A DNA stretch of 64,000 nucleotides from Escherichia virus KFS-EC. The translations under genes were made by a program, and so were the position numbers. Shown piece after piece: positions 17,101 to 60,066 of this stretch; within the stretch, counting starts at the first letter, position 1, and each line of letters starts with the position of its first letter. The stretch lies in the sequence record MH560358. The stretch is one strand, 5' to 3'. The notes beneath the pieces were generated by a model. The model saw only the letters and a program-made list of their open reading frames with translations, was not told the DNA's origin and made no database searches.

Positions 17101-17259
17101 CTTAAAGCAAGCGAACGAAGATTTGCAATGAGTCCACTGTTTGACCAGTCGGCGGTAACATTCTCTATGTTCCGTGAACTTGTAGATAAACGGTTGAAAG
17201 ATAATATAGGGAATCCACGCGATCCGAAGAATCCGACACAGAGGAAAATTAATGGCTAA
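14173..17259 (+). CDS. 7: baseplate wedge protein gp7
   Basis: 1028 aa, position and size. Confidence 0.75.
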   Translation: MIKAPSVTSLTIEKLSANQAYITWDDVGENFFYFVELAETRTRDGEIIPVDELSWVNLGYTADQNWFEDKNLFPEYYYKFRVAVAAEGFEQSKWVETEEFQTFKTNAYNFSMMREFNLANEFVKQKFTYDNRDYIKFNTDLIQASLMQEDFVFSPEYANITNISNKIIVDENFHEIQDHIEKVCIDINRTMLAEMNGVLYLFERFQPIVKVSNDKGQSWKAYKAFNDRVGNPVSRTCVYQSKTTTYVLGYDRIFYGRQASDTRWSADDVRFSDDTITFAKVGDENDLGFDVEVFGVFSRLTGDTTKYAEAMACSDDYLWVGAKDVIRRIRLKNTPVDTVQGSPTFGEKIFDPDIIRVTGNDKAVIQKMDVIDGKLLVFVTGEVKQRYQDPTKPENVVPSDDAGVYLIGSDGLSFQRVFGNTPQEREYIQHGFSNMSTNGDEVFISHYNHHFESILPDPETAAKYELGEAVKYSQEPTYLTDKKIHQTTFRASYDDLRIWELGPQAYYNEADYTWMRRNGVRVWITNDNRPLVVYPEVIYTQEVDTSGILDQNRVNREVYDKGTVTCYLNNVKFEGFKQYASGVMFHKNTGEIIGFYQFNYRVRDLVGVYWKPTNVAFVAELQNQIREVPWVPVHYDREQDPDLRPLLNKMTPDSFLLENENFRKFSEYYLQFLSDGSGTYYNKLKNLIKNKYPREQDAYEYLWSEMNKRNIYADKNKRDAVVRFFESRKSDFYSTKGVEASYKFLFKLLYNEDVEIEVESQAGLEYDIVVSSTNIDEDIVGRTIYTPTGRANVTYLEREYEGGRLRWRVAIHNLIGRFEEGQVIKSEKTAFEGMILVGVRGKELLSSSIDYINRSRSQYTMKIKSALPVSRYANDVMRFVHPVGFGFIGVTLLTMFINSGLSMKHTETIIQSLKNYKFDSGLPSVYPDRVADLDVDGNIKKDPLTGKALYLTSPLISDEFPVPPEYDQENSELFHGLKASERRFAMSPLFDQSAVTFSMFRELVDKRLKDNIGNPRDPKNPTQRKING

Positions 17260-18247
17260 TGAAAATAGTGTGATCTATCGCTCAATCATTACTAGCAAAT
17301 TCAGAACAGAAAAACTTCTGAACTTCTATAATTCTGTAGGCGATGGAGCAAATCAAATTACAATTTATGGAACGTTTGGACGTTCGGAGCCGTGGTCAGA
17401 AAACGAAAAAGAGGTGGGCTTTGCCCCACCTTATCCGACCGATTCAACGGCTGGCGTTGTTGACATGTGGACCCATATGATGGGTGCGGTTAAGATTAAC
17501 AAATCACTTCTTGATGCGGTTATCCCCCGTAAAGATTGGGGTGATACCGGACAGGATAACCCGCGCACGTTCTTTATCAATGACGTTGTTGTTGTAAACT
17601 CAGCACCATATAACCGTACAGATGTTGGTAGCGGTTGGATGGTATATCGAGTGACAGATGTTCCTGATCGCGGTTACTGCTCTATTTCAAGCATTGACGC
17701 TAAGGTAGAGTGTTTGAAGCTGGGCGGAAAGTGGACACCTACCCATGAATCAATTGCGCCACCTGTAGGAAAGGGCGATTCTATTGATATGGGTGACGGA
17801 TATCGTTGGGAGTATTTGTACACAATTCCGCCTGATGCGGCTATCAACCGTTGCACCAATGAACATATTGTTGTTCCATTCCCTGATGAACTGCGACAAG
17901 ATCCGGCGCGTTGGGGATATGATAATGTGATCACCTGGTATAATGACTATAATCTGCTTTATCGGCTGAAAGTAGTAACTTTGCGTTTTCAGGCTTATAT
18001 GGACTCTGCGCAATTCACAACTACCGCGTTAGTGGGTAATACTGGTTTCCGTCAGTTAAGCATTATCCTTAACCCATTGGAAAAGAAAGCACGCCCTAGC
18101 GATCCAGACGTTAAAGCGGTTCAAGATAAGTACCGTCCGCAAGACTTAGAGCCACACTCAGGCGAAATGATCTACATGGAAAACCGACAACCTATCGTTC
18201 GGTCATTAGATCAAACAGAACTTGTTTCTGTATTGTTTGAGTTCTAA
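17252..18247 (+). CDS. 8: baseplate wedge protein gp8
   Basis: 331 aa, position and size. Confidence 0.7.
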   Translation: MANENSVIYRSIITSKFRTEKLLNFYNSVGDGANQITIYGTFGRSEPWSENEKEVGFAPPYPTDSTAGVVDMWTHMMGAVKINKSLLDAVIPRKDWGDTGQDNPRTFFINDVVVVNSAPYNRTDVGSGWMVYRVTDVPDRGYCSISSIDAKVECLKLGGKWTPTHESIAPPVGKGDSIDMGDGYRWEYLYTIPPDAAINRCTNEHIVVPFPDELRQDPARWGYDNVITWYNDYNLLYRLKVVTLRFQAYMDSAQFTTTALVGNTGFRQLSIILNPLEKKARPSDPDVKAVQDKYRPQDLEPHSGEMIYMENRQPIVRSLDQTELVSVLFEF

Positions 18248-18257
18248 GTGTATGATT

Positions 18258-18290
18258 TAAAAGCCAATTCGAGAGAGTTGGCTTTTTCCA
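18258..18290 (+). terminator. intrinsic terminator after gene 8
   Basis: AAAAGCCAA...TTGGCTTTTT hairpin with T-run. Confidence 0.6.
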
Positions 18291-18298
18291 TTTTTGGT

Positions 18299-18327
18299 GT
18301 TGACAATCTTATTTGGTAAGGTATAAT
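18299..18327 (+). promoter_or_regulatory. sigma70-type early promoter
   Basis: GTTGACA -35, 16-nt spacer, TATAAT -10, then GGAGGA SD and ATG at 18357. Confidence 0.7.
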
Positions 18328-18356
18328 ACACACATCTAAACAACGGAGGATAAATT

Positions 18357-18614
18357 ATGGCACGTCGTAAATTTACAGATAATTGTGAAGCAATTCAGGT
18401 ATCCCCTTGCGGTTGGGATGTGATCGCGAATGGTGAAAAGATCGGAGAGATCATCGATCATACTCATTCATCACTAGCCGATTATACCGATGAACTATGG
18501 GAGGGTATCAACTTCATGAATGACACTAAACGATTCAAGACTATTGATGAAGCTATACATTTTGTGTATAATCCAACTTTCGGTATGTGGAGTGATAGAA
18601 AATGGCACGCGTAA
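18357..18614 (+). CDS. hypothetical protein (85 aa)
   Basis: First gene of the inserted early module; strong SD. Confidence 0.55.
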   Translation: MARRKFTDNCEAIQVSPCGWDVIANGEKIGEIIDHTHSSLADYTDELWEGINFMNDTKRFKTIDEAIHFVYNPTFGMWSDRKWHA

Positions 18615-18934
18615 ATATTAAATTGCATTACACAATGAATAAAGCTAAGTTCCCAATGCAAAAGCATTACTATGGTCTACGTGCACAAGATCCTAAACTC
18701 TATGGTACTCATTGGTTTTGTAAACATGATAACCAATGGCACACATACGAAGAAATGCACGAGATGATGAAACAGGGTATTGAATTTAGTTATTCTAATT
18801 ATGACCATCGTATAACTTGCATTCGAAAATTGAAACGATGGATTCGTAAGAATCCGCAATTTAAAAACTTTGTGTTCTTTATGTCTCATACTTATCTGGG
18901 GCATAGCGTTACCGTAACAGCAAAGGTTAAATAA
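18602..18934 (+). CDS. hypothetical His-rich protein (110 aa)
   Basis: Second gene of the inserted module; overlaps neighbours. Confidence 0.5.
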   Translation: MARVNIKLHYTMNKAKFPMQKHYYGLRAQDPKLYGTHWFCKHDNQWHTYEEMHEMMKQGIEFSYSNYDHRITCIRKLKRWIRKNPQFKNFVFFMSHTYLGHSVTVTAKVK

Positions 18935-19773
18935 TGGCACGACTTTCTAAACAAGAACAAAAATTACACGACCGAGCAATGGAGTTGATTAATTCAGATC
19001 GTCCATTGACATTTGAAGAAAAAGAATTTTGCTATAATAACTATCATGGCGATGGGCTAGGTGGTTCCGGTGCATTCTTTACCCCAGAATGGCTTGCCTG
19101 GGATTTTACCATTGACGCACACTGCACAGGAAAAGTATTGGACCTTTGTGCTGGGATCGGTCGTTTATCTTTTTGTATGTTGCATCGTTGTAAGCCAGAA
19201 AAGATCGTATGCGTCGAACTCAATCCAGAATTTGCGCGGATTGGCAAGCGACTATTACCGGAGGCAGAATGGATCACCAGCGATGTATTCGAATTTGAGT
19301 CAAACGAGAAATTCGATGTTGTAATTAGCAATCCACCTTTCGGGGAAATCAATACTACCAACACAAAGGATGTATTTGAATATACTGGCGGTGAGTTTGA
19401 ATTTAAGGTTATGACGTTAGGCCAGAAGTTTGCCGATGTAGGTTACTTTATTGTTCCTTCTAGTTCCGCTGGTTTTGCCTATTCCGGCAGACCTTATTAT
19501 GATGAATCAGTGAAGTCTAATAAATATCTAAAATGGAGCAAACAAACTGGTTTGGTGACTTATGCCGGATGTGGGATCGATACATCAGTCTATCGCGATG
19601 AATGGCATAATACCAACGTTTTAACAGAAGTGGTTGAGGTTCGGTATTACGAGAAAGAAGCCGTAGAAGCGCCTAAATCGCGTCCTAACGAACAAATAGA
19701 AGAAAGTAAGGAGATTACCTTACCGAAACAGGAAACAGCGTCTGTGGCGCTCTCAGACTTGTTTGACATTTAA
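18934..19773 (+). CDS. putative N6-adenine (amino) methyltransferase, gamma-class-like
   Basis: Motif order FFTP (motif X-like), VLDLCAGIG (SAM-binding motif I), NPPFG (motif IV catalytic); substrate (DNA, RNA or protein) cannot be decided from sequence. Confidence 0.7.
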   Translation: MARLSKQEQKLHDRAMELINSDRPLTFEEKEFCYNNYHGDGLGGSGAFFTPEWLAWDFTIDAHCTGKVLDLCAGIGRLSFCMLHRCKPEKIVCVELNPEFARIGKRLLPEAEWITSDVFEFESNEKFDVVISNPPFGEINTTNTKDVFEYTGGEFEFKVMTLGQKFADVGYFIVPSSSAGFAYSGRPYYDESVKSNKYLKWSKQTGLVTYAGCGIDTSVYRDEWHNTNVLTEVVEVRYYEKEAVEAPKSRPNEQIEESKEITLPKQETASVALSDLFDI

Positions 19774-19777
19774 TTAT

Positions 19778-19804
19778 AAGCCGTCCTCGTGGGCGGCTTT
19801 TTTG
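19778..19804 (+). terminator. intrinsic terminator
   Basis: AAGCCGTCC...GGGCGGCTTTTTTG. Confidence 0.55.
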
Positions 19805-19813
19805 TATGTATTT

Positions 19814-19821
19814 TATAAATA
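19814..19821 (+). promoter_or_regulatory. T4-type late promoter (TATAAATA)
   Basis: Exact TATAAATA about 28 nt upstream of the gp9 ATG. Confidence 0.6.
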
Positions 19822-19848: not shown

Positions 19849-20703
19849 ATGGCACAAGTTCCAAAGAAAAGAATAGACACTGGTACAGTCGGCAATCCAT
19901 CGACTGGCGATATCTTATATGATGGCGGTAATAAAATTAACGATAACTTTGATTCGATCTATGACGCATTTGCGGACCAACGTCTAAAAGAGATTGATCA
20001 TGGTGCTGGTCGAATGGTTATTCATGCCACTGGATACTATCAGAAACACCCACGACAAAATTATGCAGGAACGGCGGTAGAGATTGGCAGTCTGCATGAT
20101 ATTGACACAACTCAAGGCGCATTAATAGCAATCCTTCCTAAAGCTAAAGTTGGTGAGGGTGTTGTGTTCATAAATAGTAACGGTAGCTTTTCGGCAACAA
20201 CACCACTAAACATTAGAACTCAAGCAGGAGATTCTATTAGCGGGTATTCCGGTGACGCGGTAATAACTCAACCTTTCTCAAAAGTCACCGTCTGGTGTAC
20301 TGCCGTCGAAGGTAGTAGGGTTACATGGCGGCTGGGCATCGAAAGTATGTTTACCGACACAACCACACCACTAGATAGGACAGTTAATGTAACTGGAGTT
20401 GCAACCAACGTTGCTATTGCAGCAAAAACAGAATATGTATCAATTAAACTACTAACAACCGCTAGCAATACGACGGGTTCAAAAATGCGCTCAAGCGAAA
20501 CTCTATTGATGATTGATGCCAGAGCCGGAAAAGTTTACGCGACAGAATATGCGGTTTTACAGAAAACAGAAGACGAATTATACACGGTTCGTTATTTCAT
20601 TGGTTCCGGCGATAAAGTATATGCAGAGTATAAGGCTACTGGCGAAAATATTCGTTTAGCAGTTAAAGCCACAGACACTATTAAAATCGGGGTTGCTACA
20701 TGA
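19849..20703 (+). CDS. 9: baseplate wedge / long-tail-fibre socket protein gp9
   Basis: N-terminus PKKRIDTGTVGNPSTGDILYDGGNKINDNF matches the recalled T4 gp9 N-terminus. Confidence 0.85.
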   Translation: MAQVPKKRIDTGTVGNPSTGDILYDGGNKINDNFDSIYDAFADQRLKEIDHGAGRMVIHATGYYQKHPRQNYAGTAVEIGSLHDIDTTQGALIAILPKAKVGEGVVFINSNGSFSATTPLNIRTQAGDSISGYSGDAVITQPFSKVTVWCTAVEGSRVTWRLGIESMFTDTTTPLDRTVNVTGVATNVAIAAKTEYVSIKLLTTASNTTGSKMRSSETLLMIDARAGKVYATEYAVLQKTEDELYTVRYFIGSGDKVYAEYKATGENIRLAVKATDTIKIGVAT

Positions 20704-27363: not shown

Positions 27364-28179
27364 ATGGAACATTATGTATACAAAATAACCAACAAAATAA
27401 ACGATAAGATTTATGTCGGTGTTCGGTCTTGTGATGGATTAGCCGAAGACGATACAAAATACATGGGAAGTGGAAAAATAATAAAACAAGCTATTAAACA
27501 TCATGGATTAGAAAATTTCACCAAAGAGATATTGTCAAAATTTGATAGCAGAGAAGATGCGGATAAAGAAGAGGCAAGGATTGTTACGGTTGATTTTGTC
27601 AAGAGAGAAGACACGTATAATATAGCAGAAGGCGGTGGAACTGTTTGTATGTGGAAGGTTTCTGATGAAGCAAAGATAGAAGAAATGAGAAAAAAGATCT
27701 CAGAGAAAAATACTGGAAGAAAACATACTAAAGATACAAGACAAAAGATGTCCGCATCTCAAAAGGGAAGGAAGCATACGGAAGAAACAAAAGAAAAGAT
27801 GAGGCAAAATAACTTAGGAAAAGTTATTGCAGAAGAGACAAAAGAAAAGTTAAGGATGATTAATTTAGGAAAAAGACACACCGAAGAAACGCGAAGAAAA
27901 ATGTCTGATTCACATAAGGGTCTATCCTTATCCGATGAGGTGAAGGATAAGATAAGACAAAAACACACAGGACGTGTTTTTACTAAAGAATGGAGAGAAA
28001 GAATTAGCAAATCTAGAATCGGAATAACTAGCACTAGATCAAGAAGAATAAGCATCAACGGAGTGATATACAATAGCATAGGAGAAGCTGTTATAAAATT
28101 AAACGTTAAGAGAGGATTGATTGTCGGAAGACTTAAATCAAATACCGATAAAAACAAAAATTATTTCTTCGTAGATTAA
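27364..28179 (+). CDS. GIY-YIG homing endonuclease with NUMOD3-like repeats
   Basis: N-terminal YVYKITNKINDKIYVGV (GIY-YIG) and repeated GRKHTxET(K/R)xKM motifs. Confidence 0.8.
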   Translation: MEHYVYKITNKINDKIYVGVRSCDGLAEDDTKYMGSGKIIKQAIKHHGLENFTKEILSKFDSREDADKEEARIVTVDFVKREDTYNIAEGGGTVCMWKVSDEAKIEEMRKKISEKNTGRKHTKDTRQKMSASQKGRKHTEETKEKMRQNNLGKVIAEETKEKLRMINLGKRHTEETRRKMSDSHKGLSLSDEVKDKIRQKHTGRVFTKEWRERISKSRIGITSTRSRRISINGVIYNSIGEAVIKLNVKRGLIVGRLKSNTDKNKNYFFVD

Positions 28180-45846: not shown

Positions 45847-46572
45847 TTACTTGAGTGTGTGGAATTGGCTATGTTTAGTCTCTCGCACCTTGACAGACCC
45901 ATCGCGTTTGATATAATAGATCAGTGACTTGAGGGTGTCGTGTACATACGCGTGCGGGAAACGCTCTGGATACTTCTTCCAATCTGGAGTATTAACGATC
46001 CAGTCGAAAATCCACCACGGGCAGGAGTAGTAACCACGACCGCCACCGATCAAGCAAATGGTCGGACGGAAGCCAGTAAGATCGCAAAATGAATCAGTGT
46101 CATGTGCTGGGGAACGATGCTCTGCTTCGTTAGAGAAAATGTTGGCTACCGGAGATTCCACTTTAACTTCCGGTGCTTCTTCAACATCTGACTTAACTTC
46201 TTCGACCACTGGTTCAACTGCTGGAGATTCTTCTTTTGTTTCTTCAATGGCGATCTCAGGTTCTTTCATTGCTTCAACCAGAGACGGATCAACTTCGTCG
46301 AATACCACTTTATCATCTGCGGTGTCTGCTGCCAGAATAAGATCGTTAATACTGGTTCCTTCTGCCGGAGTTTCTTCTTCCATTTCGGAAGCCAGTTTAG
46401 TTAATTCGGTTTCTACGAACTCGATCATGTTCTCTAGTGATAAAGTCTTTTTGACCTTAATATCAAATTGTTTTGCGTAGTCAGCTAATTCTGTTTTAGC
46501 TGTTTTCTGTGCTTCTTTGTCGTCGGACGCCGCAATAGCGCGGAGTTCTTCGAAATATTCTTTATCAAACAT
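45847..46572 (-). CDS. inh: Inh-like protein with Hoc-type C-terminal WW motif
   Basis: Position between hoc and uvsW as in T4; acidic middle; C-terminal CPWWIFDWIV parallels Hoc IGWWVFDEIV. Confidence 0.45.
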   Translation of the reverse strand: MFDKEYFEELRAIAASDDKEAQKTAKTELADYAKQFDIKVKKTLSLENMIEFVETELTKLASEMEEETPAEGTSINDLILAADTADDKVVFDEVDPSLVEAMKEPEIAIEETKEESPAVEPVVEEVKSDVEEAPEVKVESPVANIFSNEAEHRSPAHDTDSFCDLTGFRPTICLIGGGRGYYSCPWWIFDWIVNTPDWKKYPERFPHAYVHDTLKSLIYYIKRDGSVKVRETKHSQFHTLK

Positions 46573-59853: not shown

Positions 59854-60066
59854 TTATAATGCACCATCAAGCAATTGCTCTAAGGTGTATCCTGAATAGT
59901 CTTTTTCAATCAGGATATATTTTCCTACTCGTTTAATACAACCACGCATTTCAACGTATTCTGCGTAGTTGATGGTACGAGTTGTTCCATCTTCCAGTAA
60001 TGCAGTACCGATTTCGTTAATGCGGTCATAAGTTACGTCGGTAATGATGATTTCGATGTTAGCCAT
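59854..60066 (-). CDS. hypothetical protein (70 aa)
   Basis: Start set at ATG 60066, which abuts the PeSL-like cassette; the track's N-terminal extension is translation of the leader. Confidence 0.5.
   Translation of the reverse strand: MANIEIIITDVTYDRINEIGTALLEDGTTRTINYAEYVEMRGCIKRVGKYILIEKDYSGYTLEQLLDGAL

Follow-up and report, generated by a model that had tools for sequence, protein, structure and literature searches.

An early-type cassette between baseplate genes 8 and 9 of Krischvirus phages encodes an orphan methyltransferase with a polymerase-like, putatively clamp-binding tail

The baseplate genes 8 and 9 of Escherichia virus KFS-EC (sequence record MH560358) are separated by a cassette of three plus-strand genes with its own early-type promoter (positions 18,258 to 19,804 of the 64,000 nucleotides (nt) analysed, hereafter the window), the last of which encodes a methyltransferase-like protein of 279 amino acids (aa). 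This arrangement raises the question of what an enzyme of this kind does within a late baseplate operon and on which substrate it acts. The window derives from the genus Krischvirus, i.e., the RB49/Phi1/JSE group of T4-like coliphages, and its cassette had been pointed out in an earlier note made from the sequence alone. The strongest clue to both substrate and mechanism, which is absent from that note, is the extreme C-terminus of the enzyme, as it closely resembles that of the phage DNA polymerase gp43. Based on this likeness, we consider it probable, if by no means certain, that the cassette encodes an early-expressed orphan N6-adenine DNA methyltransferase which is tethered to the sliding clamp.

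The methyltransferase open reading frame (ORF; 18934-19773, +) is composed of a catalytic core (aa 1-238, 18934-19647, +) with N-terminal helices, a Rossmann AdoMet domain and a small C-terminal subdomain, followed by a disordered acidic linker (aa 239-271, 19648-19746, +), which differs in length and sequence among relatives, and by the octapeptide ALSDLFDI, which together with the stop codon occupies 19747-19773 (+) and is regarded as a putative gp45-binding epitope for its likeness to the gp43 tail. The C-terminal peptide of the window copy reads KQETASVALSDLFDI, so that the protein ends in ...SVALSDLFDI, and other Krischvirus copies end in ...GTLSDLFDI or ...GTLTDLFDI. The DNA polymerase gp43 of RB49 ends in ...KVASLTDLFDI, and 55 Krischvirus records, among them the closest relative of the window, show no difference in the last 120 aa of gp43 (100% identity). 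At the DNA level, 22 of the 3'-terminal 27 nt of the methyltransferase gene are identical to those of the gp43 gene. No ORF other than these two has an ending similar to L[ST]DLFDI in the ~159 kb of Krischvirus DNA compared (RB49 1-50 kb, the window, RB49 119-164 kb), and this ending has been kept among the Krischvirus copies while the linker in front of it has diverged. More distant relatives that carry the gene at the same junction in the Krischvirus lineage end in TLDFVDFSEI or SLSMFDI, and a Q..LF motif is not found in the window copy.

The C-termini of gp43, gp55 and gp33 in T4 and RB69 are short hydrophobic-acidic peptides that bind the sliding clamp gp45. In gp55 the epitope follows a linker that has diverged and seems to be unstructured, and each of the three proteins remains functional with the epitope of another (PMC2988020). 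By analogy with this work on T4 and RB69, the tail of RB49 gp43 would be a clamp epitope as well, and docking of the methyltransferase on gp45 is proposed because its octapeptide represents the same hydrophobic-acidic epitope that gp43 uses. The likeness extends to the architecture, i.e., a short peptide at the extreme C-terminus behind a variable, unstructured linker, with the Krischvirus peptide being essentially the L[ST]DLFDI of gp43. Every one of these sequence criteria supports the enzyme as a predicted ligand of gp45 that would use the polymerase's version of the peptide. The tails of the other two candidate ligands in RB49 are less similar to gp43 than that of the methyltransferase, since gp55 (L012, RB49 27531-28064) ends in ...SLDQFYEIEN and gp33 (L099 23696-23965) in ...TNTLDI. 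The putative epitope is attached here to a methyltransferase, an enzyme that is not listed among the gp45 ligands in two reviews (PMC2988020, PMC9690074). A loose gp45-epitope pattern has further picked a 70-aa ORF elsewhere in the window (59854-60066, -), whose hydrophobic-acidic ending ...YTLEQLLDGAL could be a chance match or another clamp ligand.

According to the mechanism that we propose, host sigma-70 RNA polymerase would start at the consensus promoter of the cassette and produce an early transcript, two terminators would insulate the cassette from late read-through, and gp9 would be expressed again from its own late promoter. The conserved cargo would be the small orphan methyltransferase, consisting of the core (aa 1-238), the flexible acidic linker and ALSDLFDI, and the gp43-type tail would attach the enzyme to gp45 trimers that have been loaded onto phage DNA during replication, where target sites of the nascent DNA would be methylated directly behind the fork. 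This activity would supplement the separate Dam of the phage and may protect the cytosine-unmodified Krischvirus DNA from host restriction. The cytosines of RB49 DNA have indeed been described as unmodified (PMC4041780), and RB49 carries a separate dam gene (RB49p063), whose product ends in ...VYVTNVD and has no clamp-type tail. The cassette enzyme is similar to T4-type Dam in being a phage-encoded orphan methyltransferase that has no nuclease partner and presumably shields the phage genome, but Dam is of the alpha class and belongs to another family. A recent study (2026) has reported that the cytosines of Krischvirus SAP are fully modified, whereas those of the 99.96% identical TB34 are canonical, with no known pathway (PMC13390438). 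Since the records of SAP (OZ034687.1) and TB34 (OX001802.1) match the query region with equal identity and score, the cassette is unlikely to be the source of this difference; an enzyme with an NPPF motif would not make C5 modifications.

Regarding the wider family, a profile search (E <= 1e-30) has yielded about 360 clusters at 50% identity, from which 150 representatives have been scored for tails. A Q..[LIMF]F motif occurs within the last 20 aa of 34 representatives, in 28 of them no more than 4 residues from the end, compared with a rate of 0.33% in 20-aa windows elsewhere and an expectation of 1.6 cases when the tails are shuffled. Many representatives end exactly in QLTLF, QLALF or QLSLF, and a C-terminal QLxLF is the consensus motif for binding of the bacterial beta-clamp (PMC4549789). 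With the stricter pattern Q.[SD][LIM]F in the last 12 aa, 28 of the 76 methyltransferase ORFs in 80 viral loci have been matched against 2 of ~2,560 other ORFs, and one of these two is the methyltransferase read from an alternative start. In viral contigs of 40-66 kb the methyltransferases mostly end in a linker plus Q[LAPM][SD]LF[GD]xAA, the homologues of temperate phages show bacterial beta-clamp motif endings such as QLSLFDAA or QLTLF, and a copy on a Pseudomonas megaplasmid carries an 80-aa Pro/Ala linker before its terminal AQLSLFDAA. In four phage contigs rich in guanine and cytosine (L058, L059, L067, L077), a large share of all ORFs end in ...AA, probably as a by-product of the overlap of the Shine-Dalgarno sequence and start codon of the next gene at GAGGCGGCATGA-type junctions. 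Because such endings are common in these contigs, the 'AA' after QLSLFD probably lies outside the clamp motif.

Bacterial single-stranded DNA-binding protein (SSB) has an acidic C-terminal tip, ...DDDIPF. In two of the contigs (L067 5484-7211, L077 5891-7618), a ResIII/Helicase_C helicase beside the methyltransferase with beta-type tail ends in ...DDVPF or ...DDEIPF; this ending resembles the SSB tip and may represent a second mimicry of the tail of a replication protein.

The T4-like phages encode gp45 as a clamp of their own, and a second group of them, the RB16/KP15/Phynn lineage, carries methyltransferase tails of the form [ND]LFTFTIE or TFDFRIE (NLFTFTIE in RB16, DLFTFTIE in KP15), which on motif type could likewise be assigned to the clamp. 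In a distance tree of the cores, the Krischvirus type has joined the tail-less type of enterobacterial prophages in 199 of 200 bootstraps and the RB16/KP15 type in 0 of 200. The tree thus indicates that T4-like phages have taken up the gene at least twice and that gp45-type tails have arisen at least twice. The tail-less homologues (53-61% identical) occupy the extreme end of siphovirus-like enterobacterial prophages of roughly 30-36 kb, where they follow tail-tip, GIY-YIG and DUF2806 genes (L008-L011 8001-8717; L018-L039, L023). In Citrobacter freundii they adjoin bssR/yliH, and one identical tail-less protein has been found on 887 contigs. Because of this moron-like position, the gene may be expressed in the lysogen. 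Taken over the family, we lean slightly towards the view that these enzymes form a widespread mobile-element family which rides the clamp of its replicon via an exchangeable C-terminal peptide: QLxLF for beta in temperate phages and megaplasmids, a gp43-like or LF-type peptide for gp45 in T4-like phages, and none in the prophage copies.

A clamp epitope could also serve another purpose, namely to occupy gp45 and to compete with gp43, gp33 and gp55, so that replication or the onset of late transcription would be tuned and methylation would be secondary. The match to the gp43 epitope, the interchangeability of gp45 epitopes among ligands (PMC2988020) and the position of the gene inside a late operon would agree with such a regulatory tail. 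We nevertheless regard it as highly improbable, as the catalytic motifs do not vary among hundreds of homologues, elements that lack gp45-dependent late transcription widely carry this core with a beta-type tail, and nothing points to high expression.

The question of what kind of METHYLTRANSFERASE is encoded concerns the 279-aa protein, which has been compared with Pfam, NCBIfam and PADLOC and subjected to a fold search with an AlphaFold model. The FFTP, DLCAGIG and NPPFG motifs, from which a gamma-class amino-methyltransferase had originally been proposed, are indeed arranged in the order X-I-IV: motif X, GAFFTP (aa 46-51, 19069-19086, +), motif I, DLCAGIG (aa 69-75, 19138-19158, +), and motif IV, NPPFG (aa 133-137, 19330-19344, +). 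Each of them contains columns invariant across 48 homologues, with N133, P134, F136 and G137 being invariant. The best Pfam match is the generic MTS model (9e-10, 38.9 bits vs a cut-off of 23), and for the DNA-methylase models Eco57I and N6_Mtase scores of 27.2 (cut-off 25.3) and 17.0 (cut-off 20.4) have been obtained. The best PADLOC profiles are DNA methyltransferases (MADS mad2, 2e-17; MTase_II, 1.5e-9; orphan methyltransferases), in a library without curated cut-offs. An alpha-class enzyme of the T4 Dam type has been rejected, as MethyltransfD12 gives no Pfam match at E <= 0.1. Restriction-modification or defence partner genes have not been found beside the methyltransferase, whose neighbours are gp8, gp9 and the two small ORFs, which makes the enzyme an orphan.

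An alternative reading assigns RNA or protein as the substrate, in the manner of an rRNA, tRNA or mRNA methylase or of a PrmC-like enzyme, with a function in host takeover or translation and with another role, or none, for the tail. Such enzymes, i.e., METTL5/PH1948, RsmC/RsmD and PrmC/HemK, share the AdoMet domain and the (N/D)PP(F/Y) motif and are top or near-top matches. Profile searches had been suggested in the earlier note as one check, and the PrmC and RsmC readings, which would have spoken against a DNA-modifying enzyme, fall short of the curated cut-offs by far: PrmC/HemK (TIGR03534) has reached 37.4 bits vs 199.1 needed and covers only aa 64-136, and the 16S rRNA m2G methyltransferases RsmC/RsmD (NF007023) have reached 29.9 bits vs 295 needed. 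All NCBIfam matches to PrmC, RsmC and the L3 glutamine methylase are confined to the AdoMet domain (30-37 bits against cut-offs of 199-295). The record names 'prmC' and 'rRNA guanine-N2' are unsupported because of this restriction to the AdoMet domain and the large distance to the cut-offs, and the names now given in databases (prmC, release-factor or rRNA methyltransferase) are likely to be incorrect.

The AlphaFold model is confident for residues 1-240 (predicted template modelling score 0.80), with a predicted local distance difference test of about 40 for residues 248-278. The nearest solved structures are all adenine-N6 enzymes that act on RNA (METTL5, Erm, KsgA) or DNA (M.TaqI, M.BseCI, CamA, HsdM) and have obtained nearly equal scores. 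The modelled fold is thus a class I Rossmann fold of the exocyclic-amino type, probably adenine-N6, which does not tell DNA from RNA. The genomic context of the homologues points to DNA: those with a beta-type tail adjoin MT-A70, C5 and N6_N4 DNA methylases, a helicase, a primase-polymerase with AAA_25 domain and RecT, and the copies of RB16 and KP15 are located among replication genes, between genes 41 and 61. METTL5/PH1948, RsmC/RsmD and PrmC/HemK have neither clamp-binding tails nor such a replication-gene context, and a clamp-type tail that suits either beta or gp45, depending on the replicon, is meaningful only on an enzyme bound to DNA. Together with the better scores of the PADLOC profiles of DNA methyltransferases, these observations make an RNA or protein substrate unlikely. 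The enzyme is most probably an orphan (D/N)PP(F/Y) amino-methyltransferase of the N6-adenine DNA type.

Several observations nevertheless weigh against a DNA methyltransferase that is tethered to the clamp. A large target-recognition domain is not obvious in this small enzyme, and a review of jumbo phages has speculated that a family of unusually small phage adenine methylases may act on RNA (PMC7824862); if it were the family of phrog_3820 to which the methyltransferase belongs, the tails would argue against RNA. About 30% of the representatives are tail-less, jumbo-phage and prophage copies included, and because of this tethering is not essential for activity. In RB16 and KP15, gp43 ends in SLNTLFGDDW and SLNDLFGDW, respectively, unlike the tails of their own methyltransferases, so that the exact tail match is specific for Krischvirus. 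A covariation of the exact methyltransferase and gp43 tails outside Krischvirus has been rejected, as RB16, KP15 and L040/L042 share only the aromatic LF or F.F core. Finally, the identity of 22/27 nt could reflect recombinational capture of a sequence that is tolerated rather than selected.

Some of these points would equally fit a free-diffusing orphan DNA methyltransferase, the tail of which is a functionless scar of recombination with the 3' end of gene 43 or a product of chance: the likeness comprises only 8 residues, the identity at the nucleotide level is compatible with a copy event, many family members lack a tail, and the RB16 and KP15 tails differ from those of their polymerases. 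This explanation has to face the retention of L[ST]DLFDI next to a diverging linker, the other gp45-type endings of distant relatives at the same junction, the LF-type tails in two independent T4-like lineages, and the ~70-fold enrichment of canonical beta-clamp motifs at the C-termini of the wider family. We therefore hold a meaningless tail to be improbable and retain the predicted docking of the enzyme on gp45 as the preferred reading.

The anatomy of the cassette is consistent with this proposal, and its elements have all been recovered where the earlier note had placed them. Upstream, the late gene for the baseplate wedge subunit gp8 (17252-18247, +; Pfam PF09215 Phage-Gp8, 1e-142) is followed by terminator T1 (hairpin 18259-18286, whole element to 18296, +), which consists of a 12-bp stem, a GAGA loop and a U-run (-15.6 kcal/mol, z = -5.4 vs shuffles); its counterpart is annotated as a terminator in phage vB_EcoM_G37-3, and it closes the late transcript of genes 6-7-8. 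The sigma-70 early-type promoter, which had been described as near-consensus, matches the consensus in 12 of 12 positions (TTGACA 18300-18305, TATAAT 18322-18327, +, spacer 16) and is one of two perfect TTGACA-N15-18-TATAAT sites within the window; its hexamers are invariant and its spacer is variable in the six Krischvirus sequences compared. The genes for ORF85 (18357-18614, +), a small acidic protein of phrog_16603, and ORF110 (18602-18934, +), a His/Cys-containing protein with 9 His of phrog_12630, precede the methyltransferase ORF, with overlapping starts and stops among all three. Behind them, terminator T2 (hairpin 19778-19799, whole element to 19805, +) has a 9-bp stem rich in G and C and a U-run (-15.9 kcal/mol, z = -4.5 vs shuffles); it is annotated in vB_EcoM_G37-3 and has an equivalent hairpin in the metagenomic Krischvirus relative L100. 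The T4-type late promoter TATAAATA (19814-19821, +), identified by its sequence, is located 35 nt 5' of the gp9 ATG, at a distance unchanged in vB_EcoM_G37-3, and it also occurs 5' of gp9 in L100. It is followed by the late gene for gp9, the baseplate wedge/tail-fibre connector (19849-20703, +; Pfam T4_gp9_10_N, 4e-41).

Generic promoter and terminator scans of the cassette region have shown no enrichment over shuffles, and for this reason the case for these elements relies on the perfect match, the conservation and the z-scores of the hairpins rather than on site counts. Base composition is uninformative about a foreign origin, as the small ORFs (35-37% GC) are slightly AT-richer and the methyltransferase gene resembles its flanks. 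The cassette can thus be described as a terminator-bounded, autonomous transcription unit within the late baseplate operon, which on its promoter would be expressed early. The only other perfect TTGACA-N16-TATAAT site of the window (45890-45917, +) lies between a minus-strand ORF of 241 aa and a plus-strand ORF of 505 aa and may be another strong early promoter inside a structural region.

The insertion has been traced at the gene 8/9 junction of other T4-like phages. The earlier note gives both genes as adjacent in T4; in the genomes compared, adjacency has been confirmed with gaps of 63 nt in T6, 9 nt in Slopekvirus Matisse and 11 nt in Biquartavirus AhFM11. The cassette is absent in these three genera outside the Krischvirus lineage, as the proposed comparison of the junction has revealed, and because genes 8 and 9 abut there it represents an insertion relative to other T4-like genera. 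The idea of an acquired cassette is supported in this sense, but a recent acquisition is not: 2.5 kb around the cassette match 57 phage records at 93-95% identity, 56 of which cover >=80% of the query; the gene set is the same in the Krischvirus records listed, the cassette being present in 56/57, and more distant relatives possess it too. The distribution indicates an old insertion that appears to be fixed in the genus. The methyltransferase family, phrog_3820, comprises 287 phage records, and the homologues examined outside Krischvirus occupy other genome positions without ORF85 and ORF110. In two metagenomic Krischvirus relatives (L100, L101), a methyltransferase of 65% identity is located alone between gp8 and gp9; the layout in L100 is a terminator, a perfect TTGACA-16-TATAAT, the methyltransferase, a terminator and TATAAATA, without small ORFs. 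In a further related metagenomic phage (L102), a single unrelated ORF of 154 aa precedes the methyltransferase at this junction. L100 additionally encodes a 160-aa protein with a Tn7 TnsA-like N-terminal (endonuclease) domain between gp2 and gp53 (228-710, -), which may be a mobile nuclease insertion.

The earlier note had considered the three genes as one module, in which the methyltransferase is accompanied by two partners, and in its strongest form this proposal makes the whole cassette an acquired anti-restriction module with ORF85 and ORF110 as specificity, regulatory or inhibitor subunits. The overlapping starts and stops on one transcript between two terminators, the co-conservation in 56/57 Krischvirus records and the presence of two small overlapping ORFs before the methyltransferase of RB16 and KP15 would fit such a module. 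These latter ORFs are, however, unlike the Krischvirus neighbours; homology of ORF85 and ORF110 to the small pair that precedes the RB16 methyltransferase has been rejected, since no similarity has been found. Moreover, the three genes travel separately, as the methyltransferase occurs alone in L100 and L101, or with a different neighbour in L102, and the small pair occurs without it: homologues of ORF85 (about 69% identity) and ORF110 adjoin each other within the early region of Vequintavirus FV3, and other rV5-like phages carry the ORF110 homologue alone, both without a methyltransferase (ORF110 copies in many rV5-like Vequintavirus genomes show about 59% identity). Within Krischvirus, ORF110 exists as two alleles that are ~99% and ~71% identical to the window copy (L004 3010-3830; L005 3501-3830), next to which the flanking ORF85 and methyltransferase genes stay 93-98% identical, which points to a replacement of alleles within the cassette. 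In the RB49 reference, ORF85 is broken into two short coding sequences (RB49p140/p141; L098 1403-1649), but it is intact in the window and most relatives, which reflects either a frameshift or sequencing error in an old record or a dispensable gene.

Neither small ORF has a match in Pfam or PADLOC, and no function of ORF85 has been assigned with PHROG, Pfam, NCBIfam, PADLOC or tblastn. The AlphaFold2 model of ORF110 is poor and has given no fold match; its residues C40, H42, H47, H69, C73 and H96 are invariant in six sequences and may form a metal site. Because the three genes are distributed independently, the methyltransferase is considered as the conserved cargo and ORF85 and ORF110 as interchangeable passengers. 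The proposal of one module with two partners has therefore been abandoned, and its anti-restriction version with dedicated subunits is very unlikely; from their distribution, ORF85 and ORF110 would be unrelated small early genes on a shared transcript that the methyltransferase does not need.

The cassette as such is not new, as the gene is annotated in many records, and the study of the RB49 genome had already listed it as a new ORF (RB49ORF143w) that weakly matches a methyltransferase (PMC1524935). A literature search of incomplete coverage has yielded neither a paper that describes a clamp-binding motif in a methyltransferase of phages or bacteria nor one on the function of RB49 ORF143, and a clamp-partner review from 2022 names DNMT1-PCNA as the only methyltransferase (PMC9690074). 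In this system a DNA methyltransferase is brought to new DNA by a short clamp-binding motif, the PIP-box (PMC9690074), as is predicted here. DNMT1 is, however, a large C5-cytosine enzyme for hemimethylated CpG, whereas the phage protein combines a 240-aa amino-methyltransferase core with a C-terminal peptide, putatively for gp45 or, in homologues, for beta, and the two systems are analogous, not homologous. Compared with M.TaqI, Eco57I-like enzymes, HsdM and MADS mad2, the phage enzyme is much smaller and has no recognisable large target-recognition domain, specificity subunit or restriction partner. For MuC of phage Mu, a study (PMC12867686) has reportedly dealt with a C-terminal beta-clamp-binding motif. 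Insertion sequence (IS) transposases and MuC are mobile-element proteins that use the host clamp via C-terminal QLxLF (PMC4549789), and the motif also occurs in many of the methyltransferase homologues, but the activity attached is transposition or transcription, and the window copy has a gp45-type peptide instead.

Orphan methyltransferases are common in phages, but no explanation is known for how these enzymes match the very high rate at which phage DNA is made. If the proposed tethering is true, the methyltransferase would ride the clamp and modify the DNA as it emerges. The clients of the T4-family clamp would then extend beyond replication and late transcription and include a new class of gp45 ligands, and the system would be the first prokaryotic or viral parallel to the PCNA-coupled maintenance methylation by DNMT1. 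The switch between beta-type and gp45-type tails would represent a natural experiment in which short linear motifs retarget an enzyme between replicons. As Krischvirus phages are part of therapy collections and the DNA modification status affects host range, the enzyme may also be relevant for their use.

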